Part shown: positions 38,564 to 51,432 of the stretch, piece after piece
How positions within the stretch are numbered: position 1 is the first letter of the stretch
Layout of the letters: the number at the start of each line of letters is the position of its first letter
Assembly (NCBI GenBank): GCA_963809535.1
Contig: CAWEJW010000003.1
Span: forward strand, 25,987-89,986
Origin: an uncultured Actinomycetes bacterium
GTDB taxonomy: Bacteria > Actinomycetota > Coriobacteriia > Anaerosomatales > CAVRZR01
Length of the DNA stretch: 64,000 nt
Reading direction: 5' to 3'
The notes under the pieces: model-generated
The model's database searches: none
Seen by the model: the letters and a program-made list of their open reading frames with translations, nothing else
What the model was told of the DNA's origin: nothing
Translations under genes and position numbers: made by a program

Positions 38564-39247
38564 TCACACGTTGTCGTGGAACTCGGCCCTGATGTGCGCC
38601 CCATCGCAGAAGGGTTTGTTGCCGGACTCCCCGCATCGACACAGGGTGACCCGGTTGCGCACCTCATAGGCGGCATCGTCGGCGCCTTCGATGAGGATCC
38701 CGCCGCGTGCGAAGAGCGGGCCGCTCACGCCCATCGCAGGATCTTCAACGAGTCCAACGGATCGCTCGAACACGAATTCCAGCGTCTCGTCGCTGCCGCT
38801 CTTGCACACCGAGTATCGTCCCGACGGGCAGAGCATGGCTTCCTCTTCGACGAGCGCCCGAATCTCGGGGTCGTCACACTTCTCCACGAGGTTCCACAGC
38901 CCGCCCGCTCGATCGCAGAATCGCGCCTCGGCACAGAGCTTCCTGGCGTCGCGCACCGTGATGCCGGGTCCGTCGATCGACACGGACTGCTCGAGTAGCG
39001 ACTCGTGCCCGGCCGTCTCCGCGCCGTCGAATCCGATCTTCGTGTGACTGCCGTCGCAGAACGGCTTCTCTGCCGAGTGTCCACAGCGACAGAGCTGGTA
39101 CCGCTCGTCCACGTCGAGGCGCTCGATCTCGCGCCACGCAACCGACTCGCCCTGCTCGTTCGTCACGATCTCAAGGCGCAGCAGCGGGACGCCCCCCGAG
39201 ACCAAGTACGGGCCGTCTTCCGTGATCGCTATCCGCATCTTGGCCAT
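38564..39247 (-). CDS. CDGSH iron-sulfur protein (two CDGSH motifs flanking a divergent ferredoxin-like region)
   Basis: LCRCG.S..KPFCDGSH and LCRCG.S.NKPFCDGAH; central C....FC and CPSG. Confidence 0.92.
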   Translation of the reverse strand: MAKMRIAITEDGPYLVSGGVPLLRLEIVTNEQGESVAWREIERLDVDERYQLCRCGHSAEKPFCDGSHTKIGFDGAETAGHESLLEQSVSIDGPGITVRDARKLCAEARFCDRAGGLWNLVEKCDDPEIRALVEEEAMLCPSGRYSVCKSGSDETLEFVFERSVGLVEDPAMGVSGPLFARGGILIEGADDAAYEVRNRVTLCRCGESGNKPFCDGAHIRAEFHDNV

Positions 39248-39374
39248 GGAAGGCTCCTGACTTGAGGGCTCATGACTTCGACCGAGCATTCGGCCGCAGC
39301 GTGTACGTGGGATTCCCCTTGGATGATGCCCGCCGACTGCCGGGTGCAATCGCCGACGTCGGCGCAACGCTCAC

Positions 39375-39421
39375 TTGACATTGCGATAGTCTCTGAATAT
39401 TCTGATTCTACTGAACTTCAG
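39375..39421 (+). promoter_or_regulatory. Sigma70 promoter overlapped by 9-bp-periodic CTGA boxes
   Basis: TTGACA(39375)-17 nt-TATTCT(39398); CTGA at 39393, 39402, 39411 and inverted TCAG at 39418. Confidence 0.75.
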
Positions 39422-39468
39422 AAGAAGCGGCGAGCTGCAGCGCCGCATGTACCACTCGGAGGGACCCA

Positions 39469-39777
39469 ATGATCGATCAAGACACCTATGCAACGTGCGC
39501 GACGAGTCCCGGTGAGTCCGCGCCCGACGCACAGGCGACCGCGTCCGACACGGCCGAGTGCTGCGCGCTCGAGGCCGTCGTGAGCGTCGACGAACGCGGA
39601 CAGCTCGTCCTGCCGAAGGACCTTCGGGTACGCGCGGGCATCAGTGCGGGCGACCGGCTCGCCGTTGTCTCGTACCGGGATGACGCGGGCTCGATCTGTT
39701 GCATCACACTCGTCAAGGCCGGAGCCGTTGCGGGCGCAGTGCGCTCGGTCATCGGCCCTGCGCTCGGCATCGACTAA
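39469..39777 (+). CDS. AbrB/MazE/SpoVT-fold protein resembling HgcAB-associated HgcC
   Basis: CC..EAVVSVDERGQLVLPKDLR..AGI.AGD.LAVV....CCI.L.KA. Confidence 0.8.
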   Translation: MIDQDTYATCATSPGESAPDAQATASDTAECCALEAVVSVDERGQLVLPKDLRVRAGISAGDRLAVVSYRDDAGSICCITLVKAGAVAGAVRSVIGPALGID

Positions 39778-39792
39778 CGAAAGGACCACGTC

Positions 39793-40620
39793 ATGACCAC
39801 ACACGATCCTGACACCATCAAGGAAGCGGTGCGCGACCGCTACGCGGGCCACGCGCGCACAAAGACCTCGTGCTGCTCGTCATCAAGCAGCTGCGGCTCG
39901 GGCTCATCAGCGCTGCTAGTCCCCGGCTACAACGCGGAAGACCTCAGCCAACTCCCGGCCGACGCTGACTTGGGTCTAGGCTGCGGCAACCCGCTGGCGC
40001 TCGAGTCCGTGCGAGAGGGCGAAGTCGTAGTCGACCTCGGCGCAGGCGGCGGCATCGACTGCTTCCTTGCCGCTCGTCGAGTCGGCCCGACAGGGCGCGT
40101 CATCGGCGTCGACATGACGCCGGAGATGGTGCTGCTCGCACAGCGGAACGCAAAGACGACAGGCGTGGAGAACGTCGAATTCCGACTCGGCGAGATCGAA
40201 GATCTGCCGGTGGAGGACGACGTCGCCGACCTGATCATCTCCAACTGTGTCCTCAACCTCGTGCCCGACAAGCGCCGCGCCTTTGCCGAAGCATTCCGGG
40301 TGCTCAAACCCGGCGGCCGCATCTCGGTATCGGACATCGTCACGACCGGGCCGCTGCCCGAGGCCGCGCGCGCGTCCGTTGGAGCGTACGTCGCCTGTCT
40401 CGGGGGAGCACTTCCCCTCGAGGACTACCTTGCAGCGGCGCGCGCGGCAGGGTTCGGCGACGTCCACGTCGCCAGCGAGACCGCGTATGCGACGACCGAC
40501 GACGAAGCTGAGGAACTGCTCGGCGCATTCGCCGACAGCGATGGCATCCCGCGGGATGAAGCTGTGCGAGCTGCTCAGCTGTTCCGAAGCGTCACCGTAC
40601 AGGGCGTGAAGCCCGTGTAG
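39793..40620 (+). CDS. arsM: Arsenite methyltransferase
   Basis: V..RY, SCC, LGLGCGNP, DLGAGGG.D, GVDMT, ISNCVLNL, C.GGA. Confidence 0.9.
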   Translation: MTTHDPDTIKEAVRDRYAGHARTKTSCCSSSSSCGSGSSALLVPGYNAEDLSQLPADADLGLGCGNPLALESVREGEVVVDLGAGGGIDCFLAARRVGPTGRVIGVDMTPEMVLLAQRNAKTTGVENVEFRLGEIEDLPVEDDVADLIISNCVLNLVPDKRRAFAEAFRVLKPGGRISVSDIVTTGPLPEAARASVGAYVACLGGALPLEDYLAAARAAGFGDVHVASETAYATTDDEAEELLGAFADSDGIPRDEAVRAAQLFRSVTVQGVKPV

Positions 40621-40655
40621 GAACGGCTTCGGCGGTCCTCCTACACGAAAGCCAC

Positions 40656-40679
40656 AGGGCGCGGGGCTACCCGCGCCCT
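40656..40679. terminator. Hairpin between convergent arsM and typA
   Basis: AGGGCGCGGG-GCTA-CCCGCGCCCT. Confidence 0.6.
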
Positions 40680-40683
40680 TGCC

Positions 40684-42492
<1,809 letters not shown>

Positions 42493-45917: not shown

Positions 45918-47168
45918 GTGGACAAACGCTTCATCGTGGAGACCGTCACTGCCCAGACGCAGTTGGAGGAGGCGGCTCCCGCCCTGCTGCAGGCGAAGGC
46001 GGAACCGCTGTTCGCGCTTGAAGCGGCGGCGGCCGGCGGCGCGGACATGGACGCCGTCCACGACATGCGGGTCGCTTCGCGGCGTCTCCGGGAGGCGATG
46101 CGCCTGCTCGCCCCCGTCTATCCGAGCAGCCGGTTCAAGGCGTGGTACCGACGTGTCCGACGGATCACCCGAGCCCTCGGTCCCGTCCGTGACTCTGACG
46201 TCTTCATCGACTACTTCTCGAGGCTTCCCGGCGAGCTGAGCGAAGAAGGCCGACGATGCGTCGTGTTCATGATCGGCTACCGGATGGGACAGCGCGAACA
46301 CGAGCTCGAAGTCCTCAATCGCGAGCTCGCGAAGCTCGATCTCGCCGACTCTCGCCAGACCTTCTCAGTGATGGCGAGATCCGTCGGCGGTTCAGCTGAC
46401 GCGAAGCGACCGCTCGCCGACTTTGCCCATGCCGCCATTGCGGAGCGCGCCGCGCAGGTCTTCGGCGCACAGCCGTTGGCCCTGGAGCAGGAGAACGTCC
46501 TCGATCAGCACGCACTGAGGATCCACTACAAGAGGCTGCGATACGCGGCCGAAGCATTTGCATCGTGCTACGGGGAGGATTTCGACGAGCTCCACGAGAC
46601 GCTGACGGCCTTCCAGGACGCCCTGGGCGATCTGCATGACGTGCACGTCTTCATGGGCATGGTCGTCTCGCCCGACCGCGTCGAGGCCGCGAGGCGCGCG
46701 GGTGTGAGCACGGACGGCATCGACGAGTTGGAGCGGGTACTCGCAGGCCGCGCGCAAGAGCAGTTCGAGCGATTCGCCCGGCTGGCCGGTAGGCACCCCG
46801 CCGAGCGCCTTCTGCCGATGCTGCTTCTGCCTCTTTCCAGACCGCAACCTGCCGCAGCGGACGTCGAGCCGGAAGTCCTCGAGCCGGAAGCGGCAACCGC
46901 TGAGGATCCGATGGCTCGGAACCTCGCAGGCGACGCAGACGTCCAGCCCCCCGCCGGCGAGGCGACAGGTGCGGACGCCGAAGGGCCTTCGCCTCTGCCC
47001 GAGAGTCCGGTTGCTGAGGACATCATGGGCCCGACCTCGGTGAAGGAGCTGTTGGCCGATCCGATCCCGCCGGCGTTTCCGGCGTCGGCTGAAGAGCTGG
47101 CCACCACGGCTCGAAGGGCCGCTGGCGCCCGACGGACGCGCGGGTCGGGAGACGCGGAGACTCAGTAG
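45918..47168 (+). CDS. CHAD domain protein with acidic disordered tail
   Basis: VHDMRVASRRLR, LG.VRD.DV, HALRI..KRLRY, QD.LGDLHD. Confidence 0.92.
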   Translation: MDKRFIVETVTAQTQLEEAAPALLQAKAEPLFALEAAAAGGADMDAVHDMRVASRRLREAMRLLAPVYPSSRFKAWYRRVRRITRALGPVRDSDVFIDYFSRLPGELSEEGRRCVVFMIGYRMGQREHELEVLNRELAKLDLADSRQTFSVMARSVGGSADAKRPLADFAHAAIAERAAQVFGAQPLALEQENVLDQHALRIHYKRLRYAAEAFASCYGEDFDELHETLTAFQDALGDLHDVHVFMGMVVSPDRVEAARRAGVSTDGIDELERVLAGRAQEQFERFARLAGRHPAERLLPMLLLPLSRPQPAAADVEPEVLEPEAATAEDPMARNLAGDADVQPPAGEATGADAEGPSPLPESPVAEDIMGPTSVKELLADPIPPAFPASAEELATTARRAAGARRTRGSGDAETQ

Positions 47169-47199
47169 ACCGAGCGCACGCCGGAGGCTCGGGGTAATG

Positions 47200-47634
47200 T
47201 CAGATGGCCTTGTGGCGGCCCAACAGCCGGTCAAATGCCGAGAGGGCTTTGAGCTGCTCGATCCGCTCACGCTGAGTCTCGAGCTCCGCCTGGAGCTTCT
47301 CTGACCGGCTCTGCTCGGTCTCGAGCGCCTTTTGCTGCTCCTGGGCGATCGCTCGTGCCCAGGCCACCTGGACGAGCAGATCCGAACGATCGGACTCAAG
47401 CTGCGTGATGCGGGCGAGGGCTGTGCGCTCGTCGAGGCCGGCTGGCGATCCCACGAACCCCTGGAGGGTCCGGACATCGGCCTCCGACAGCATGAACGTG
47501 CCGTTGCGTTTGTTGCCGACGCGCTCCGGGCTGATGATGCCTGCCTTGATCTGTCGGCGAATCCACTTCGGCGTCACGCCGATGATCTCGGCGGCCTGTT
47601 TGAGGGTTGTGCCCTGCTTGACCAGTCTCTTCAC
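47200..47634 (-). CDS. HTH (excisionase/MerR-like) plus coiled-coil protein
   Basis: TLKQAAEIIGVTPKWIRRQIKAG; heptad-rich C-terminus. Confidence 0.78.
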   Translation of the reverse strand: MKRLVKQGTTLKQAAEIIGVTPKWIRRQIKAGIISPERVGNKRNGTFMLSEADVRTLQGFVGSPAGLDERTALARITQLESDRSDLLVQVAWARAIAQEQQKALETEQSRSEKLQAELETQRERIEQLKALSAFDRLLGRHKAI

Positions 47635-47754
47635 CCTCTTGCCTCTGAGCCGTGAGCCGGTTGTACCCGCAGCCGAGTGTAGCGCATGGTAGCGTGGACT
47701 GAGGCGTGGAGGCCGGGGGGTTGCAGGCGCTCCGCATGTGCAGGAAGGGACGCA

Positions 47755-48246
47755 ATGGCGTCAGAGGGCGTTGAGATCGAACGGAAGTTCCTCGTGGCGG
47801 ACGACCCGCCTGGCTTGAGGAGCTCCCCATCGTCCCAACTTCGCCAGGGGTACCTGGCGGTCGGCTCGGACGCTGAAGTCAGGCTTCGTGACGACGGGCA
47901 TGCCCAGACACTCACCGTGAAGTCGGGATCGGGTCTTGAGCGCGGAGAAGTCGAAGTGGAGCTTTCGGCCGAGCAGTTCGAGGCGCTCTGGCCGGCCACG
48001 GTCGGCAAGCGGCTTGTGAAACATCGCTTCGAGCTGCCCGCGGGCAAGTGGATCCACCAATTGGATGTCTATACAGGGCCACTCGAAGGACTCAAGGTCG
48101 TTGAGGTCGAGTTCCCTTCGGCTGCCGACGCGACGGCCTTCGAGCCTCCAGGTTGGTTCGGCCGAGAGATCACGAACGACACGCGGTATAGGAACGCATC
48201 GCTGGCGCTCCATGGCCCGCCAGAGAAGGGAGAGGCTGCCGGGTGA
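47755..48246 (+). CDS. CYTH domain protein
   Basis: EIERKF, QGYL, RLR, K.R, EVEF, W.G.EIT. Confidence 0.92.
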   Translation: MASEGVEIERKFLVADDPPGLRSSPSSQLRQGYLAVGSDAEVRLRDDGHAQTLTVKSGSGLERGEVEVELSAEQFEALWPATVGKRLVKHRFELPAGKWIHQLDVYTGPLEGLKVVEVEFPSAADATAFEPPGWFGREITNDTRYRNASLALHGPPEKGEAAG

Positions 48247-49187
48247 GGATCGCGGCCATCGATATCGGAACGAACTCCATCCACTGCACCATCTTCGAGG
48301 TGCTCGTCGGCGGGCGGCGCAAGGTCCTGGACGACGAGAGGGCCTACACCCGACTCGGGCGTGGTACGCCTGAGACTGGGCGTCTTTCTGACTCGGCGAT
48401 GCAGGACTCCATCGTGGCTCTCAGCCGGATGCTGCAGTTCGCCGAGACCTACGAGGTCTCCCGCGTGCGTGCGGTCGCGACGGCAGCCGTCCGCGAGGCG
48501 TCCAACGGCAAGGAGTTCGTCGCCAGGATCGGCGAGGAGCTCGGCCTGGACGTCGAAGTCGTCTCCGAAGAAGAGGAGGGCCGGCTCGTCTTTCTGAGCG
48601 CCGCTGACAGCTTCGGGATCGAAGGTCGCTGGGCAGTCGTCGATATCGGCGGTGGGTCGGTCGAGATCGTGCACGCCCTGAACAGGCAGATCGAGTTCGT
48701 CACGTCACTCCGTCTGGGCGCGGTGTACCTTTCCGAGCAGTTTCACCACCTGGACCCGATGCCGAGCGAGGACTACGAGCAGCTCGTCGCGCACGTCCGG
48801 CACTCCATCGCCGATGCGCTCGGCAACGAGCGCCAGCCGGTATTCCGACTCGTGGGTTCGGGAGGAACAGTGAGTTCCGTCGGCGGGCTCATCGCCGCCG
48901 AGCGCGAACCGGCAGTGTCGAGCCTCCACGGCTTCGAGTTCACAAGGGCAGACCTCACCCACATACTGGCGTCGCTACAGGGCACGACCGCGGCGGAGCG
49001 CGCCGCGCTGAAAGGGATGCCCGAGAACCGAGTCGATATCATCATCGAAGGTGCCGTCGTGCTCGAGGAATCGATGCGTGCACTTGGTGCGAATGGGGTG
49101 ATCGTGAACCTGCGCGGCATCCGCGAGGGCATGGTCATCGACGCGATGCGGCGCGAGCGAAGTGCCCGGACCAGTCCAGCTAGGTGA
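48243..49187 (+). CDS. ppx: Ppx/GppA phosphatase (no HD domain)
   Basis: AIDIGTNS, ATAAVREA.N, EEG, DIGGGS.E, GIREG. Confidence 0.9.
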   Translation: MRIAAIDIGTNSIHCTIFEVLVGGRRKVLDDERAYTRLGRGTPETGRLSDSAMQDSIVALSRMLQFAETYEVSRVRAVATAAVREASNGKEFVARIGEELGLDVEVVSEEEEGRLVFLSAADSFGIEGRWAVVDIGGGSVEIVHALNRQIEFVTSLRLGAVYLSEQFHHLDPMPSEDYEQLVAHVRHSIADALGNERQPVFRLVGSGGTVSSVGGLIAAEREPAVSSLHGFEFTRADLTHILASLQGTTAAERAALKGMPENRVDIIIEGAVVLEESMRALGANGVIVNLRGIREGMVIDAMRRERSARTSPAR

Positions 49188-49269
49188 CCCGTCACAAAGC
49201 GTTCACCACATCGGGCGTCTTTTGCCTCAGAATCGACGTAGTGGTGCCCGGCTACCGTAGGGACATCGG

Positions 49270-51432
49270 GTGAGCAAGCGAGCAGTTGAAGAGCGCGGAA
49301 GCGACGCCGAGATCCTCCAGGACGAGCGCACCGATGAGGTCGACCTCGACGACCCCGCGCTGTACCTGAACCGCGAGTTCGAACTCCTGAGTTTCCAGGA
49401 GCGGGTGTTGGAGGAAGCAGCCGATCCCACCAATCCACTTCTCGAGCGAGTCCGTTTCCTGGCAATCCTCGGCTCGAACCTGGCCGAGTTCTACATGGTG
49501 CGCCTCGCTGGGCTCAGGCAGATGGTGGAAGCGCACGTATCCGAGATATCTCTCGACGGGCTGACCGCCAAAGAGCAGCTCGACACCGCCCGTGAGCGAG
49601 CTTCCGATCTGATGAAGCGCAGCAGGGTGGCGTACGCGGAACTGCACGCGGAGCTTTCCGCGGCGGGCATCTACCTGCTCGACTATGACCAACTGGACGC
49701 ATCCCAGAAGGCCGCAGCCGACCAGTACTACGACGAGTACGTGTTCCCGGTGCTGACTCCGCTCGCGTTCGATCCCGGCAGGCCCTTCCCGCATATCTCG
49801 AATCTGAGCCTCAACCTCGCGGTTCTCGTTCGGAGCGCCGAGGGCGAGGAGCACTTCGCGCGAGTCAAGGTCCCAACGGCCATGTCGCGGCTCGTGGACG
49901 TCGGCCTGCCCGAACGTCGAACTGCCCGCGAGGGAGTGAGCCGCAAGCGTGAGCACCATTTCGTCTGGCTGGAGCAGCTCATCGCCGCGCATCTCGGTTC
50001 TCTCTTCCTCGGCATGGAAGTGGTCGAGGCACATCCATTCAGGGTCACGCGAGACGCCGAAGTCGCGATCCAGGAGCTAGAAGCTGACGACCTGCTGCTC
50101 ACGATCGAGCAGGGGGTGCGAAAGCGCCGATTCGGCGACGTGGTGCGCGTCTCCGTCACGCCGAACACGCCGGAATCCGTGCTGCAGATACTCGTGCGCA
50201 ACCTCGAGGTGGATCCGGCCGATCTGGTGGAGCTCACGCCGCCCTTGGGAGCGTCCGGCTTGATCGAACTCTACGAAGTCGACAGGCCCGATCTGAAGTA
50301 CAAGCCGTTCACGCCTGCAGTCTCTCAGGATCTCTCTGCGAAGGACCCTGATGTCCTGTTCAAAGCGGTGCGCAAGGGCGACTACCTGCTGCATCGGCCG
50401 TTCGACTCGTTCGAACCGGTTGTTCGGCTCATCCAACTCGCCGCCCGTGACCCGAAGGTCCTCGCGATCAAGATGACGCTCTACCGAGTCGGCCGCGAAT
50501 CGCCCATCGTCGCCGCGCTGCTCGACGCCGCCCAAGAGGGCAAGGAAGTGACCGCGCTCGTCGAGCTCAAGGCCCGGTTCGACGAGGAGAGCAACATCGA
50601 CTGGGCGCGTGCACTCGAGGCGGAGGGGGTCCACGTCGTCTACGGACTCGTTGGCCTCAAGACTCACTGCAAGGTCACGCTCGTGGTCCGTCGAGAGAAA
50701 CGAATGATCCGGCGATACGTGCACGTGGGGACGGGCAACTACAACACGTCGACGGCTGTCCAATACACGGATCTTGACCTGCTCACCAGCGACGAGAGGA
50801 TCGTCGAGGACGCGGCGCAGCTCTTCAACGCGCTGACGGGGTATGCGGCGTCACAGCACTACGACACGTTCGCCGTTTCGCCACAGGGCATCCGTGAGAG
50901 ACTCGAGTCCTTGATCGAGCGCGAGAAGGCGCTTGGCGCCGCCGGACGACCCGCGCACATCATCCTGAAGACGAACGCGCTGACGGACGGGCGGATGATC
51001 AGATCGCTCTATGAGGCTTCCCGGGCGGGCGTCCGGATCGACTTGATAGTCAGGGGCATTTGCTGTCTCCGTCCTGGCCTTCCCGGGGTGAGCGAGAACA
51101 TCCGCGTGCGCAGCATCCTAGGGCGATTCCTCGAGCACACGAGGATCTACTACTTCGGCAACGACGGGGAGCCTGAGTGCCTCATCGGCAGCGCGGATCT
51201 GATGGGCCGCAACTTGGACCGTCGGATCGAGGTCTTGACGCCGGTATTCGACACGGACCTCGTGACGCGCCTCCGTGCTGCCCTCGACACCTACCTGGTA
51301 GACAACGTCAAGGCACGCGAGATGCATTCGGACGGCAGCTACGTCCGAGCGCGACCTGCGGGTGAAGATGGGCTCGTCGACGCACAGGCGCTGCTCATGG
51401 AGATGAGTGGCACGGCAGCGCTAGCGAAGTAG
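49270..51432 (+). CDS. ppk1: Polyphosphate kinase 1
   Basis: NRE..L.F..RVL, EF..VR.AGL, PFP.ISN, ELKARFDE, KTH.K, TGNYN, GRFLEH, SADLM.RNLDRR. Confidence 0.96.
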   Translation: MSKRAVEERGSDAEILQDERTDEVDLDDPALYLNREFELLSFQERVLEEAADPTNPLLERVRFLAILGSNLAEFYMVRLAGLRQMVEAHVSEISLDGLTAKEQLDTARERASDLMKRSRVAYAELHAELSAAGIYLLDYDQLDASQKAAADQYYDEYVFPVLTPLAFDPGRPFPHISNLSLNLAVLVRSAEGEEHFARVKVPTAMSRLVDVGLPERRTAREGVSRKREHHFVWLEQLIAAHLGSLFLGMEVVEAHPFRVTRDAEVAIQELEADDLLLTIEQGVRKRRFGDVVRVSVTPNTPESVLQILVRNLEVDPADLVELTPPLGASGLIELYEVDRPDLKYKPFTPAVSQDLSAKDPDVLFKAVRKGDYLLHRPFDSFEPVVRLIQLAARDPKVLAIKMTLYRVGRESPIVAALLDAAQEGKEVTALVELKARFDEESNIDWARALEAEGVHVVYGLVGLKTHCKVTLVVRREKRMIRRYVHVGTGNYNTSTAVQYTDLDLLTSDERIVEDAAQLFNALTGYAASQHYDTFAVSPQGIRERLESLIEREKALGAAGRPAHIILKTNALTDGRMIRSLYEASRAGVRIDLIVRGICCLRPGLPGVSENIRVRSILGRFLEHTRIYYFGNDGEPECLIGSADLMGRNLDRRIEVLTPVFDTDLVTRLRAALDTYLVDNVKAREMHSDGSYVRARPAGEDGLVDAQALLMEMSGTAALAK

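Follow-up and report, generated by a model that had tools for sequence, protein, structure and literature searches.

The window, which is the whole 64,000-nt stretch of DNA that was analysed, lies on contig C3 of the host genome (G000; 2.33 Mb, 97.9% complete) and contains hgcC, a small cysteine-rich gene, followed by arsM after a gap of only 15 nt (39777 to 39793 in the ORF listing), as the initial annotation had described (Table 1). The two genes are flanked by a divergent CDGSH iron-sulfur gene upstream and a convergent typA downstream, and the closest named homologues belong to Coriobacteriia-type Actinomycetota. The CDGSH protein (window 38567–39244, minus strand) matched zf-CDGSH twice and Fer4_19, and its homologue was also found near hgcC-arsM in two other loci (L012 and L014) and was absent from distant loci. 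Elsewhere in the window (45918–51432), a cluster resembling the polyphosphate genes CHAD, CYTH, Ppx and Ppk1 was noticed by eye in the translations. The window was said to carry no arsR, acr3 or hgcAB, and indeed none of the ArsR-type, acr3 or hgcA-like matches of the genome was located on contig C3. The genome-wide check for hgcAB and arsR gave a mixed result. No hgcA was found over the cut-off, the sole match reaching 51 bits over positions 33–155 of 325, and arsR-acr3 was present on contig C1 at 109.7–111.6 kb, while a search of this 97.9% complete genome for both types of arsC gave neither. The C1 region (109700–112000; L005) contains two divergent ArsR-type genes, acr3, a TCGA-N6-TCGA palindrome and a small thioredoxin-like gene that was recognised by eye. 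Overall, what the initial annotation had observed was confirmed, and its interpretation was supported in part.

Table 1. Features of the hgcC-arsM locus, with positions in the window.
Feature	Position	Strand	Remarks
-35 hexamer TTGACA	39375..39380	+	promoter scan; 57 of 81 related loci have TTGAC within 45 nt upstream of the array
-10 hexamer TATTCT	39398..39403	+	promoter scan; overlapped by box 2
predicted HgcC operator	39390..39424	.	palindromic WWTCWGAWW units at 39392 (TCTGA), 39401 (TCTGA), 39410 (ACTGA) and 39418 (TCAGA)
GC-rich hairpin in presumed 5' leader	39427..39446	+	terminator-like on minus strand
hgcC	39469..39777	+	102-aa AbrB/SpoVT swapped-hairpin protein; Cys10, Cys31, Cys32, Cys77, Cys78; NF040962, TIGR01439
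arsM	39793..40620	+	275 aa, arsenite S-adenosylmethionine methyltransferase; PRK11873 and ArsM-aligned Cys

The product of the downstream gene belongs to the ArsM family (PRK11873, 322.5 bits against a cut-off of 263), and its C34, C64, C152 and C202 align with cysteines of the solved ArsM structures 5evj and 4kw7, which we take to be catalytic; it is predicted to be an As(III)-methylating enzyme. The upstream product had been called an HgcC-like AbrB protein. The AbrB fold stood, and the protein was found to be HgcC proper rather than merely like it (NCBIfam NF040962, 97.7 bits, cut-off 70), the only one over the cut-off in a profile search of the genome. Its AbrB domain was recognised by TIGR01439 (32.8 bits, cut-off 28.3), PF04014 fell just below threshold (24.0 against 24.7), and no ArsR or HTH_5 (winged-helix) match was obtained in profile searches. 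The adjacency to hgcAB from which HgcC takes its name is not seen at this locus, in a genome with no hgcA over the cut-off, and, judging by the gene neighbourhoods, the name suits no more than a part of the family. Automatic labels make the protein an antitoxin, PrlF or MazE; the gene directly downstream in the window is arsM and not a cognate toxin. In an Atlas search with the homologue P0013, every cluster returned was either hypothetical or named HgcC.

The structure model of HgcC (mean pLDDT 75) gave SpoVT (2w1t; E 0.036, probability 1.00), AbrB (1yfb), Sso7c4-type proteins and MazE as the top Foldseek rows, with no match at E 0.001 or better. When residues 28–102 were modelled for self-association, the score was 0.71 and that of the best of three controls 0.01; among proteins of solved structure, pairs attained this mark in 20 of 30 cases and single chains in 1 of 23, the run being made on four copies, unlike the calibration, with only the two-chain interface reported. 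The runs shared at least 72% of contacts at pLDDT of at least 71 and predicted a strand-swapped dimer, the score of which may come from likeness since AbrB dimers have already been solved. In the modelled contacts, residues 34–35 meet 66–68 of the partner and 79–81 meet 79–81, and C32 falls where the strand next to the partner's C77-C78 hairpin begins. Because C32 and the partner's C77-C78 share one edge of the barrel but lie two strands apart, a three-Cys site in the dimer would be possible at most.

Cys-Cys pairs had been noted on both sides of the DNA-binding fold. The C-terminal pair was found to be conserved, C77-C78 being kept in 115 of 119 proteins (the other four keep one Cys) and in 80/80, 76/76, 47/48 and 78/80 copies of the best-locus, methanogen-class, bacterial-phylum and metagenome samples described below, but the N-terminal pair is not family-wide. 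Although C32 was kept in 114/119, 78/80 (one unparsed), 68/76, 46/48 and 70/80, the corresponding figures for C31 were 95/119, 73/80, 2/76, 35/48 and 58/80. Thus, the conserved thiols of HgcC are C32, C77 and C78 in these alignments and C31 is variable. Most copies have an extra Cys in the N-terminal tail, which is unstructured in the model. Within a sample the cysteine pattern was the same whatever the partner gene, and no Cys-Cys pair was seen by eye in the other AbrB-type proteins of the host order that were inspected. The residues invariant in 37 homologues were D41, R43, G44, Q45, P49, K50, R53, G57, G61 and C78, the first seven of which fall in the AbrB-type DNA-binding part.

The near-consensus promoter reported upstream of hgcC was recovered, with a 17-nt spacer and 10 of 12 matches to the consensus, and it was the one promoter-like site in 38800–41200, where 0.2 were expected from shuffles. 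The stability of the leader hairpin was no better than that of shuffles (z 0.21). The promoter was also said to carry CTGA boxes at exact 9-bp intervals and an inverted copy. The first three boxes do follow each other at exact 9-bp steps, and the fourth comes 8 bp on and is thus out of register by 1; the inverted copy exists but is an ordinary further unit, because the TCWGA unit is itself palindromic. The generality of this arrangement was examined in 81 promoters, comprising the 80 best species-genome loci and the window, which yielded 217 units with consensus WWTCWGAWW, 119 with a CTG and 98 with a CAG core. At least two in-register (9-bp) units were present in 76 of the 81 hgcC promoters, as compared to 57 of 1600 sequences shuffled by dinucleotide and 6 of 78 control stretches taken upstream, and at least three in 54/81, against 0/1600 and 1/78, respectively. 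The spacings between perfect boxes peaked at 9, 18, 27 and 36. Among loci with enough upstream DNA, two or more units were also found in 62 of 75 methanogen-class, 39 of 47 bacterial-phylum and 61 of 73 metagenome loci. The search for the CTGA-periodic motif before HgcC homologues with and without hgcAB was therefore positive, the same array standing before arsM and before hgcA. As the array is alike across both partner genes and in bacteria and archaea, it tracks neither the host sigma factor nor the downstream gene. In the 57 loci with a nearby TTGAC, the box centres lie about 19–20, 28–31, 38–39 and 47–48 nt past the start of the -35 hexamer, and the clusters span the spacer, the -10 and the presumed start, so that a protein bound there would be expected to block the polymerase. 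In archaeal loci the last box was seen by eye a few bases before a TATA-like box, a placement that may also be compatible with activation.

The specificity of the array for hgcC was checked with a scoring matrix built without the window locus. The window site ranked best in the 2.33-Mb genome, whether three units (28.5 bits, next 13.1) or two units (24.5 bits, next 18.2) were scored, and the hgcC promoter was the top-scoring site in 79 of the 81 loci. A two-unit array was found before none of 24 other AbrB-type genes of the host order, and none of the 30 hgcA loci fetched from 42 matches in this order had an array (best three-unit score 4.5). Likewise, no second three-unit array was present in the host genome, and 15 genomes in which hgcA lies apart from an hgcC close to arsM had neither hgcC nor the array within about 1.5 kb before the distant hgcA (best three-unit score 7.3, control 22.5). 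A wider regulon was also sought by scanning 50 genomes for a -35 combined with two boxes, a pattern that proved noisy: nine stretches were fetched, seven as pattern matches and two for other reasons, and two of the pattern matches were further hgcC copies and the others unconvincing. With no second array in the host genome, none before the distant hgcA and nothing convincing from the pattern scan, the HgcC regulon appears local, with two exceptions. One is an array before an arsM gene that stands apart from hgcC, 1.5 kb past hgcC-sigZ (L085:6662), and the other a decayed second hgcC-arsM cassette with an intact array that faces a divergent arsR (L076:8544; L162). Separately, a two-unit array of 18.6 bits (three-unit score 7.8) was noticed behind a TTGACA in G068 (L158:188), the downstream operon being heterodisulfide-reductase-like by eye; it may be a distal target or a chance occurrence.

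The genes that follow hgcC were compared in several samples. The first comprised the best 80 of 555 confirmed species-genome loci, a sample biased by its ranking on likeness to the window HgcC, and here the next recognised gene was arsM in 56, hgcA in 21, sigZ in two and none in one; arsM was directly adjacent in 45 of the 56, further on in nine and unmeasurable in two. Two even samples, which have a few genomes in common with the first, were taken from a methanogen class and a bacterial phylum. In the methanogen class, 77 of 151 genomes contain hgcC in 81 copies, five of which were dropped as the anchor motif failed, and the next gene in the remaining 76 was hgcA in 41, arsM in 27 and another gene or a contig end in eight. 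In the bacterial phylum, 48 of 301 genomes contain 50 copies, two of which were dropped; of the 48 left, 33 are followed by arsM, though one of these reaches only 85 bits and is unlikely to be ArsM, 13 by hgcA and two by something else. When the two even samples were pooled, HgcC stood before arsM in 60 of 124 loci and before hgcA in 54. A distant homologue retrieved 80 metagenome loci, some of them near-duplicates, in which arsM came next in 71, hgcA in six and a contig end in three. Thus, arsM is the commonest partner of hgcC outside the methanogens and hgcA the commoner one within them, and one or the other was next in 77/80, 68/76, 46/48 and 77/80 loci. The search for hgcA in 48 of the 56 arsM-type genomes gave 34 without a match, the assemblies being incomplete; of the eight left out, five have hgcAB in the same locus and three were unsearched. 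The proposed link to methyltransferase genes independent of mercury methylation is borne out, as far as gene content indicates, by hgcC-arsM in a host genome without an hgcA match and in these 34 of 48 genomes.

Rarer neighbourhoods were also seen. HgcC with a full array precedes an MddA-like methanethiol S-methyltransferase gene in L272 (1781–2512; 130 bits against a cut-off of 270) and in L285, where the gene is similar by eye, and a UbiE-like methyltransferase gene whose product has an ArsM-like N-terminus by eye in L160 (639–1448). A SigZ-type ECF sigma gene, often together with a gene for a small Cys-rich protein, lies beside hgcC-arsM or hgcC-hgcAB in 13 of the 81 loci (including L018, L039, L040, L045, L046, L049, L050, L051, L054, L064 and L085). 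In a tree of 186 HgcC cores, 13 partner changes were needed, of which only two are forced by starred branches, the tree being made by a quick method from 84 columns with 105 of 183 inner branches open; with so few forced changes, neither a donor nor a sequence of partner switches is put forward.

The regulators of arsM were then compared within the host order, in which 19 of 61 genomes have arsM over the cut-off. In seven of the 19, hgcC is directly upstream of arsM, and the array is present in six of these (18.4–38.2 bits). The seventh (G015; L136/L095) has hgcC-arsM without a recognisable array and an HgcC that, at 85.9 bits, scores below all others of the order; its operator may have decayed or changed. 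The other 12 have arsM without hgcC, all with a divergent ArsR and none with an array (at most 2.2 bits); ArsR is divergent from arsM itself in 11, and in G011 it precedes hgcA, hgcB and arsM. An exact TCGA-N6-TCGA palindrome was found in nine of the 11 ArsR-arsM promoters and at the arsR-acr3 locus of the window's own genome, and from this position it is the putative ArsR site. As that genome carries acr3 and two ArsR-type genes, control by a distal ArsR needed testing, and the palindrome was absent from 39245–39470, the hgcC promoter, even with a looser pattern. The suggestion that ArsR has been replaced at this arsM was thus upheld, with no sign of distal ArsR control in the form of an ArsR-type palindrome at the promoter. 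The pairing of hgcC with the array or of ArsR with the palindrome indicates that the regulator and its site change together at the same gene; as only three families account for the seven hgcC genomes, this represents few independent events. In the same order, hgcA is present in 41 of 61 genomes, and upstream of hgcA in 30 loci ArsR or ars genes were found in 15 and hgcC in none. The hgcA arrangements include arsR-acr3-hgcAB (L302, G002), hgcAB-arsM divergent from ArsR (L159/L323, G011) and others (L300–L322).

With the genes, the boxes over the spacer, -10 and presumed start, the strict pairing of the array with hgcC and the conservation of C32, C77 and C78 established by sequence, the following mechanism was proposed. 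HgcC would head a two-gene unit with arsM, and its dimers would occupy the 9-bp-spaced TCWGA boxes over their own promoter and repress it. That HgcC binds these boxes, with a two-fold dimer on each palindrome, and thereby blocks RNA polymerase is very probable, as a palindromic unit would fit a two-fold dimer and a 9-bp array would fit dimers side by side, given the fold. As(III) or methylarsenite would then be bound by C77-C78 together with C32 of the partner or with a Cys of the flexible tail, and this would loosen the array and allow ArsM to be produced. The regulator-operator cassette is portable, as it also stands before hgcAB in other anaerobic bacteria and archaea, where it would place mercury methylation under the same signal. 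Arsenic is favoured as the signal because HgcC occupies the position of ArsR at arsM, because arsM is the commonest partner outside the methanogens and because hgcAB of strain ND132 is arsenic-responsive under an ArsR-like protein (10.1101/2022.10.17.512643). The As(III) sites of AfArsR and CgArsR are also reported to consist of a vicinal Cys pair joined by a third Cys, two Cys being enough for MAs(III) (PMC11868830). Some findings speak against this reading: C32 is missing in 8/76, 2/48 and 10/80 copies of the methanogen-class, bacterial-phylum and metagenome samples, the acr3 efflux gene of the host genome stands beside ArsR and is not led by HgcC, methanogens favour as partner hgcA, whose product acts on Hg, a few hgcC copies lead other methyltransferase genes (MddA-like, UbiE-like), and G015 has hgcC-arsM without a recognisable array. 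Taken together, the reading of HgcC as an autorepressor on the array that is released by As(III) or methylarsenite at its cysteines is given a probability of roughly 0.55. The wider proposal, that HgcC is an As(III) sensor on the AbrB fold and, with the TCWGA array, a portable bacterial and archaeal substitute for ArsR at arsM and hgcAB, is put forward more tentatively, at slightly less than even odds.

The same repressor and operator could answer to another thiophilic ion such as Hg(II), Sb(III), Zn or Cd, or HgcC could be a broad sensor. The loci where hgcA follows (41/76 in the methanogen class and 13/48 in the bacterial phylum) would suit this, as would the reports that tri-cysteine sites bind Hg(II) too (PMC11212059) and that four-Cys sites are suggested to favour Zn, Cd or Pb (10.1101/2022.10.17.512643); however, arsM is the next recognised gene in 56/80, 33/48 and 71/80 loci, hgcC occupies the place of ArsR in the kin, the host genome has no hgcA over the cut-off and the cysteine pattern is the same for both partners within a sample, so that we consider this unlikely. 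Slightly less likely again is a redox, sulfide or persulfide switch or a structural metal at the cysteines of the same repressor, with thiol or methyl-donor status as the signal. Nearly all partners are arsM or hgcA, and the replacement of ArsR in the kin suits arsenic better, although the rare methanethiol S-methyltransferase-like (L272, and L285 by eye) and UbiE-like partners would agree with such a signal. The thioredoxin-like genes that are frequent neighbours could be counted for it too, but thioredoxin-like, ArsP-like and DGC neighbours are ars-operon genes in ND132 (10.1101/2022.10.17.512643). In its favour, the hgcAB regulator of ND132 is reported to answer also to SAH (10.1101/2022.10.17.512643), and arsM of Paraclostridium EML to go up with substrate limitation as well as with arsenite (PMC11653729).

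An orphan antitoxin-type autorepressor that only damps its own unit, with structural cysteines and nothing sensed, would agree with the automatic PrlF or MazE labels and with the toxin-antitoxin reading of Zhang et al. (PMC10349881). It appears improbable, as PF04014 stays below its cut-off, arsM or hgcA follows in nearly every locus of all four samples (77/80, 68/76, 46/48 and 77/80), and the Cys-Cys pair is kept across bacteria and archaea and is by eye absent from the other AbrB-type proteins of the order that were inspected. Control of the promoter by a distal ArsR or another host factor, with HgcC acting elsewhere, for example in delivering As or Hg to the methyltransferase, is very improbable: vicinal-Cys chaperones such as ArsD exist and two ArsR-type genes stand beside acr3 in the host genome, but the TCGA-N6-TCGA palindrome is absent from the promoter (39245–39470), the TCWGA array is essentially confined to hgcC and most of the invariant HgcC residues lie in the AbrB-type DNA-binding part.

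The release of an HgcC autorepressor by arsenic, if true, would mean that mercury methylation is arsenic-switched in roughly one in four genomes sampled from a methanogen class, that hgcAB is an arsenic-response gene pair under two unrelated regulators and that the AbrB swapped-hairpin fold, a scaffold without known metalloid sensing, can serve as an As(III) sensor. The control and purpose of hgcAB are an open question and the regulation of arsM in anaerobes is poorly known, and these genes govern the formation of methylmercury and methylarsenic in sediments and rice paddies. HgcC is also common, occurring in 77 of 151 methanogen-class and 48 of 301 bacterial-phylum genomes. The window locus is a clean case, with arsM in the absence of hgcAB and relatives that use ArsR at the same gene, and with a defined 35-bp operator, one small protein and three candidate cysteines the inducer lends itself to direct testing.

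The HgcC family has been catalogued already. Zhang et al. (2023) found hgcA preceded by a prlF/mazE/abrB gene, which they interpreted as related to toxin-antitoxin systems, in 14 contigs and in 8 of the 31 methylators in culture (PMC10349881), and McDaniel et al. (2020) found a putative regulator before hgcAB in 112 genomes (PMC7438021), which is probably HgcC. In the literature as searched, through titles, the beginnings of abstracts and few subscription papers, the family is in print only as a putative hgcAB regulator, and neither the HgcC operator nor the arsM majority nor the interchange with ArsR was found; a metal-sensing AbrB, SpoVT or MazE member was not found either. No literature on HgcC with arsM was found, and the supplements of Zhang et al. 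and McDaniel et al., which lay outside the search, may show arsM neighbours. HgcC would be a thiol-based metalloid repressor on a different fold. The window HgcC shares with NF040962 and the gene of Zhang et al. the profile, the fold labels and the position at the head of a methyltransferase unit, and differs in preceding arsM in a genome with no hgcA match; in what the two accounts set out, no operator, cysteine pattern, arsM link or experiment is described (PMC10349881, PMC7438021). With AbrB, SpoVT, Sso7c4 and MazE, HgcC shares TIGR01439 and the fold match and may share the strand-swapped dimer, while it has an extended Cys-Cys hairpin and a C-terminal helix and no toxin partner was recognised. 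In function HgcC may resemble the ArsR/SmtB As(III) repressors (R773 ArsR, AfArsR, CgArsR, ArArsR and ArsR2 of P. mercurii ND132), as it likewise heads arsM or hgcAB, is likely an autorepressor too and has a third Cys in addition to a vicinal pair. However, HgcC is not a member of that family, having a swapped hairpin in place of a winged helix, and its predicted operator is a 9-bp TCWGA array, whereas that of ArsR in the host order would be TCGA-N6-TCGA.
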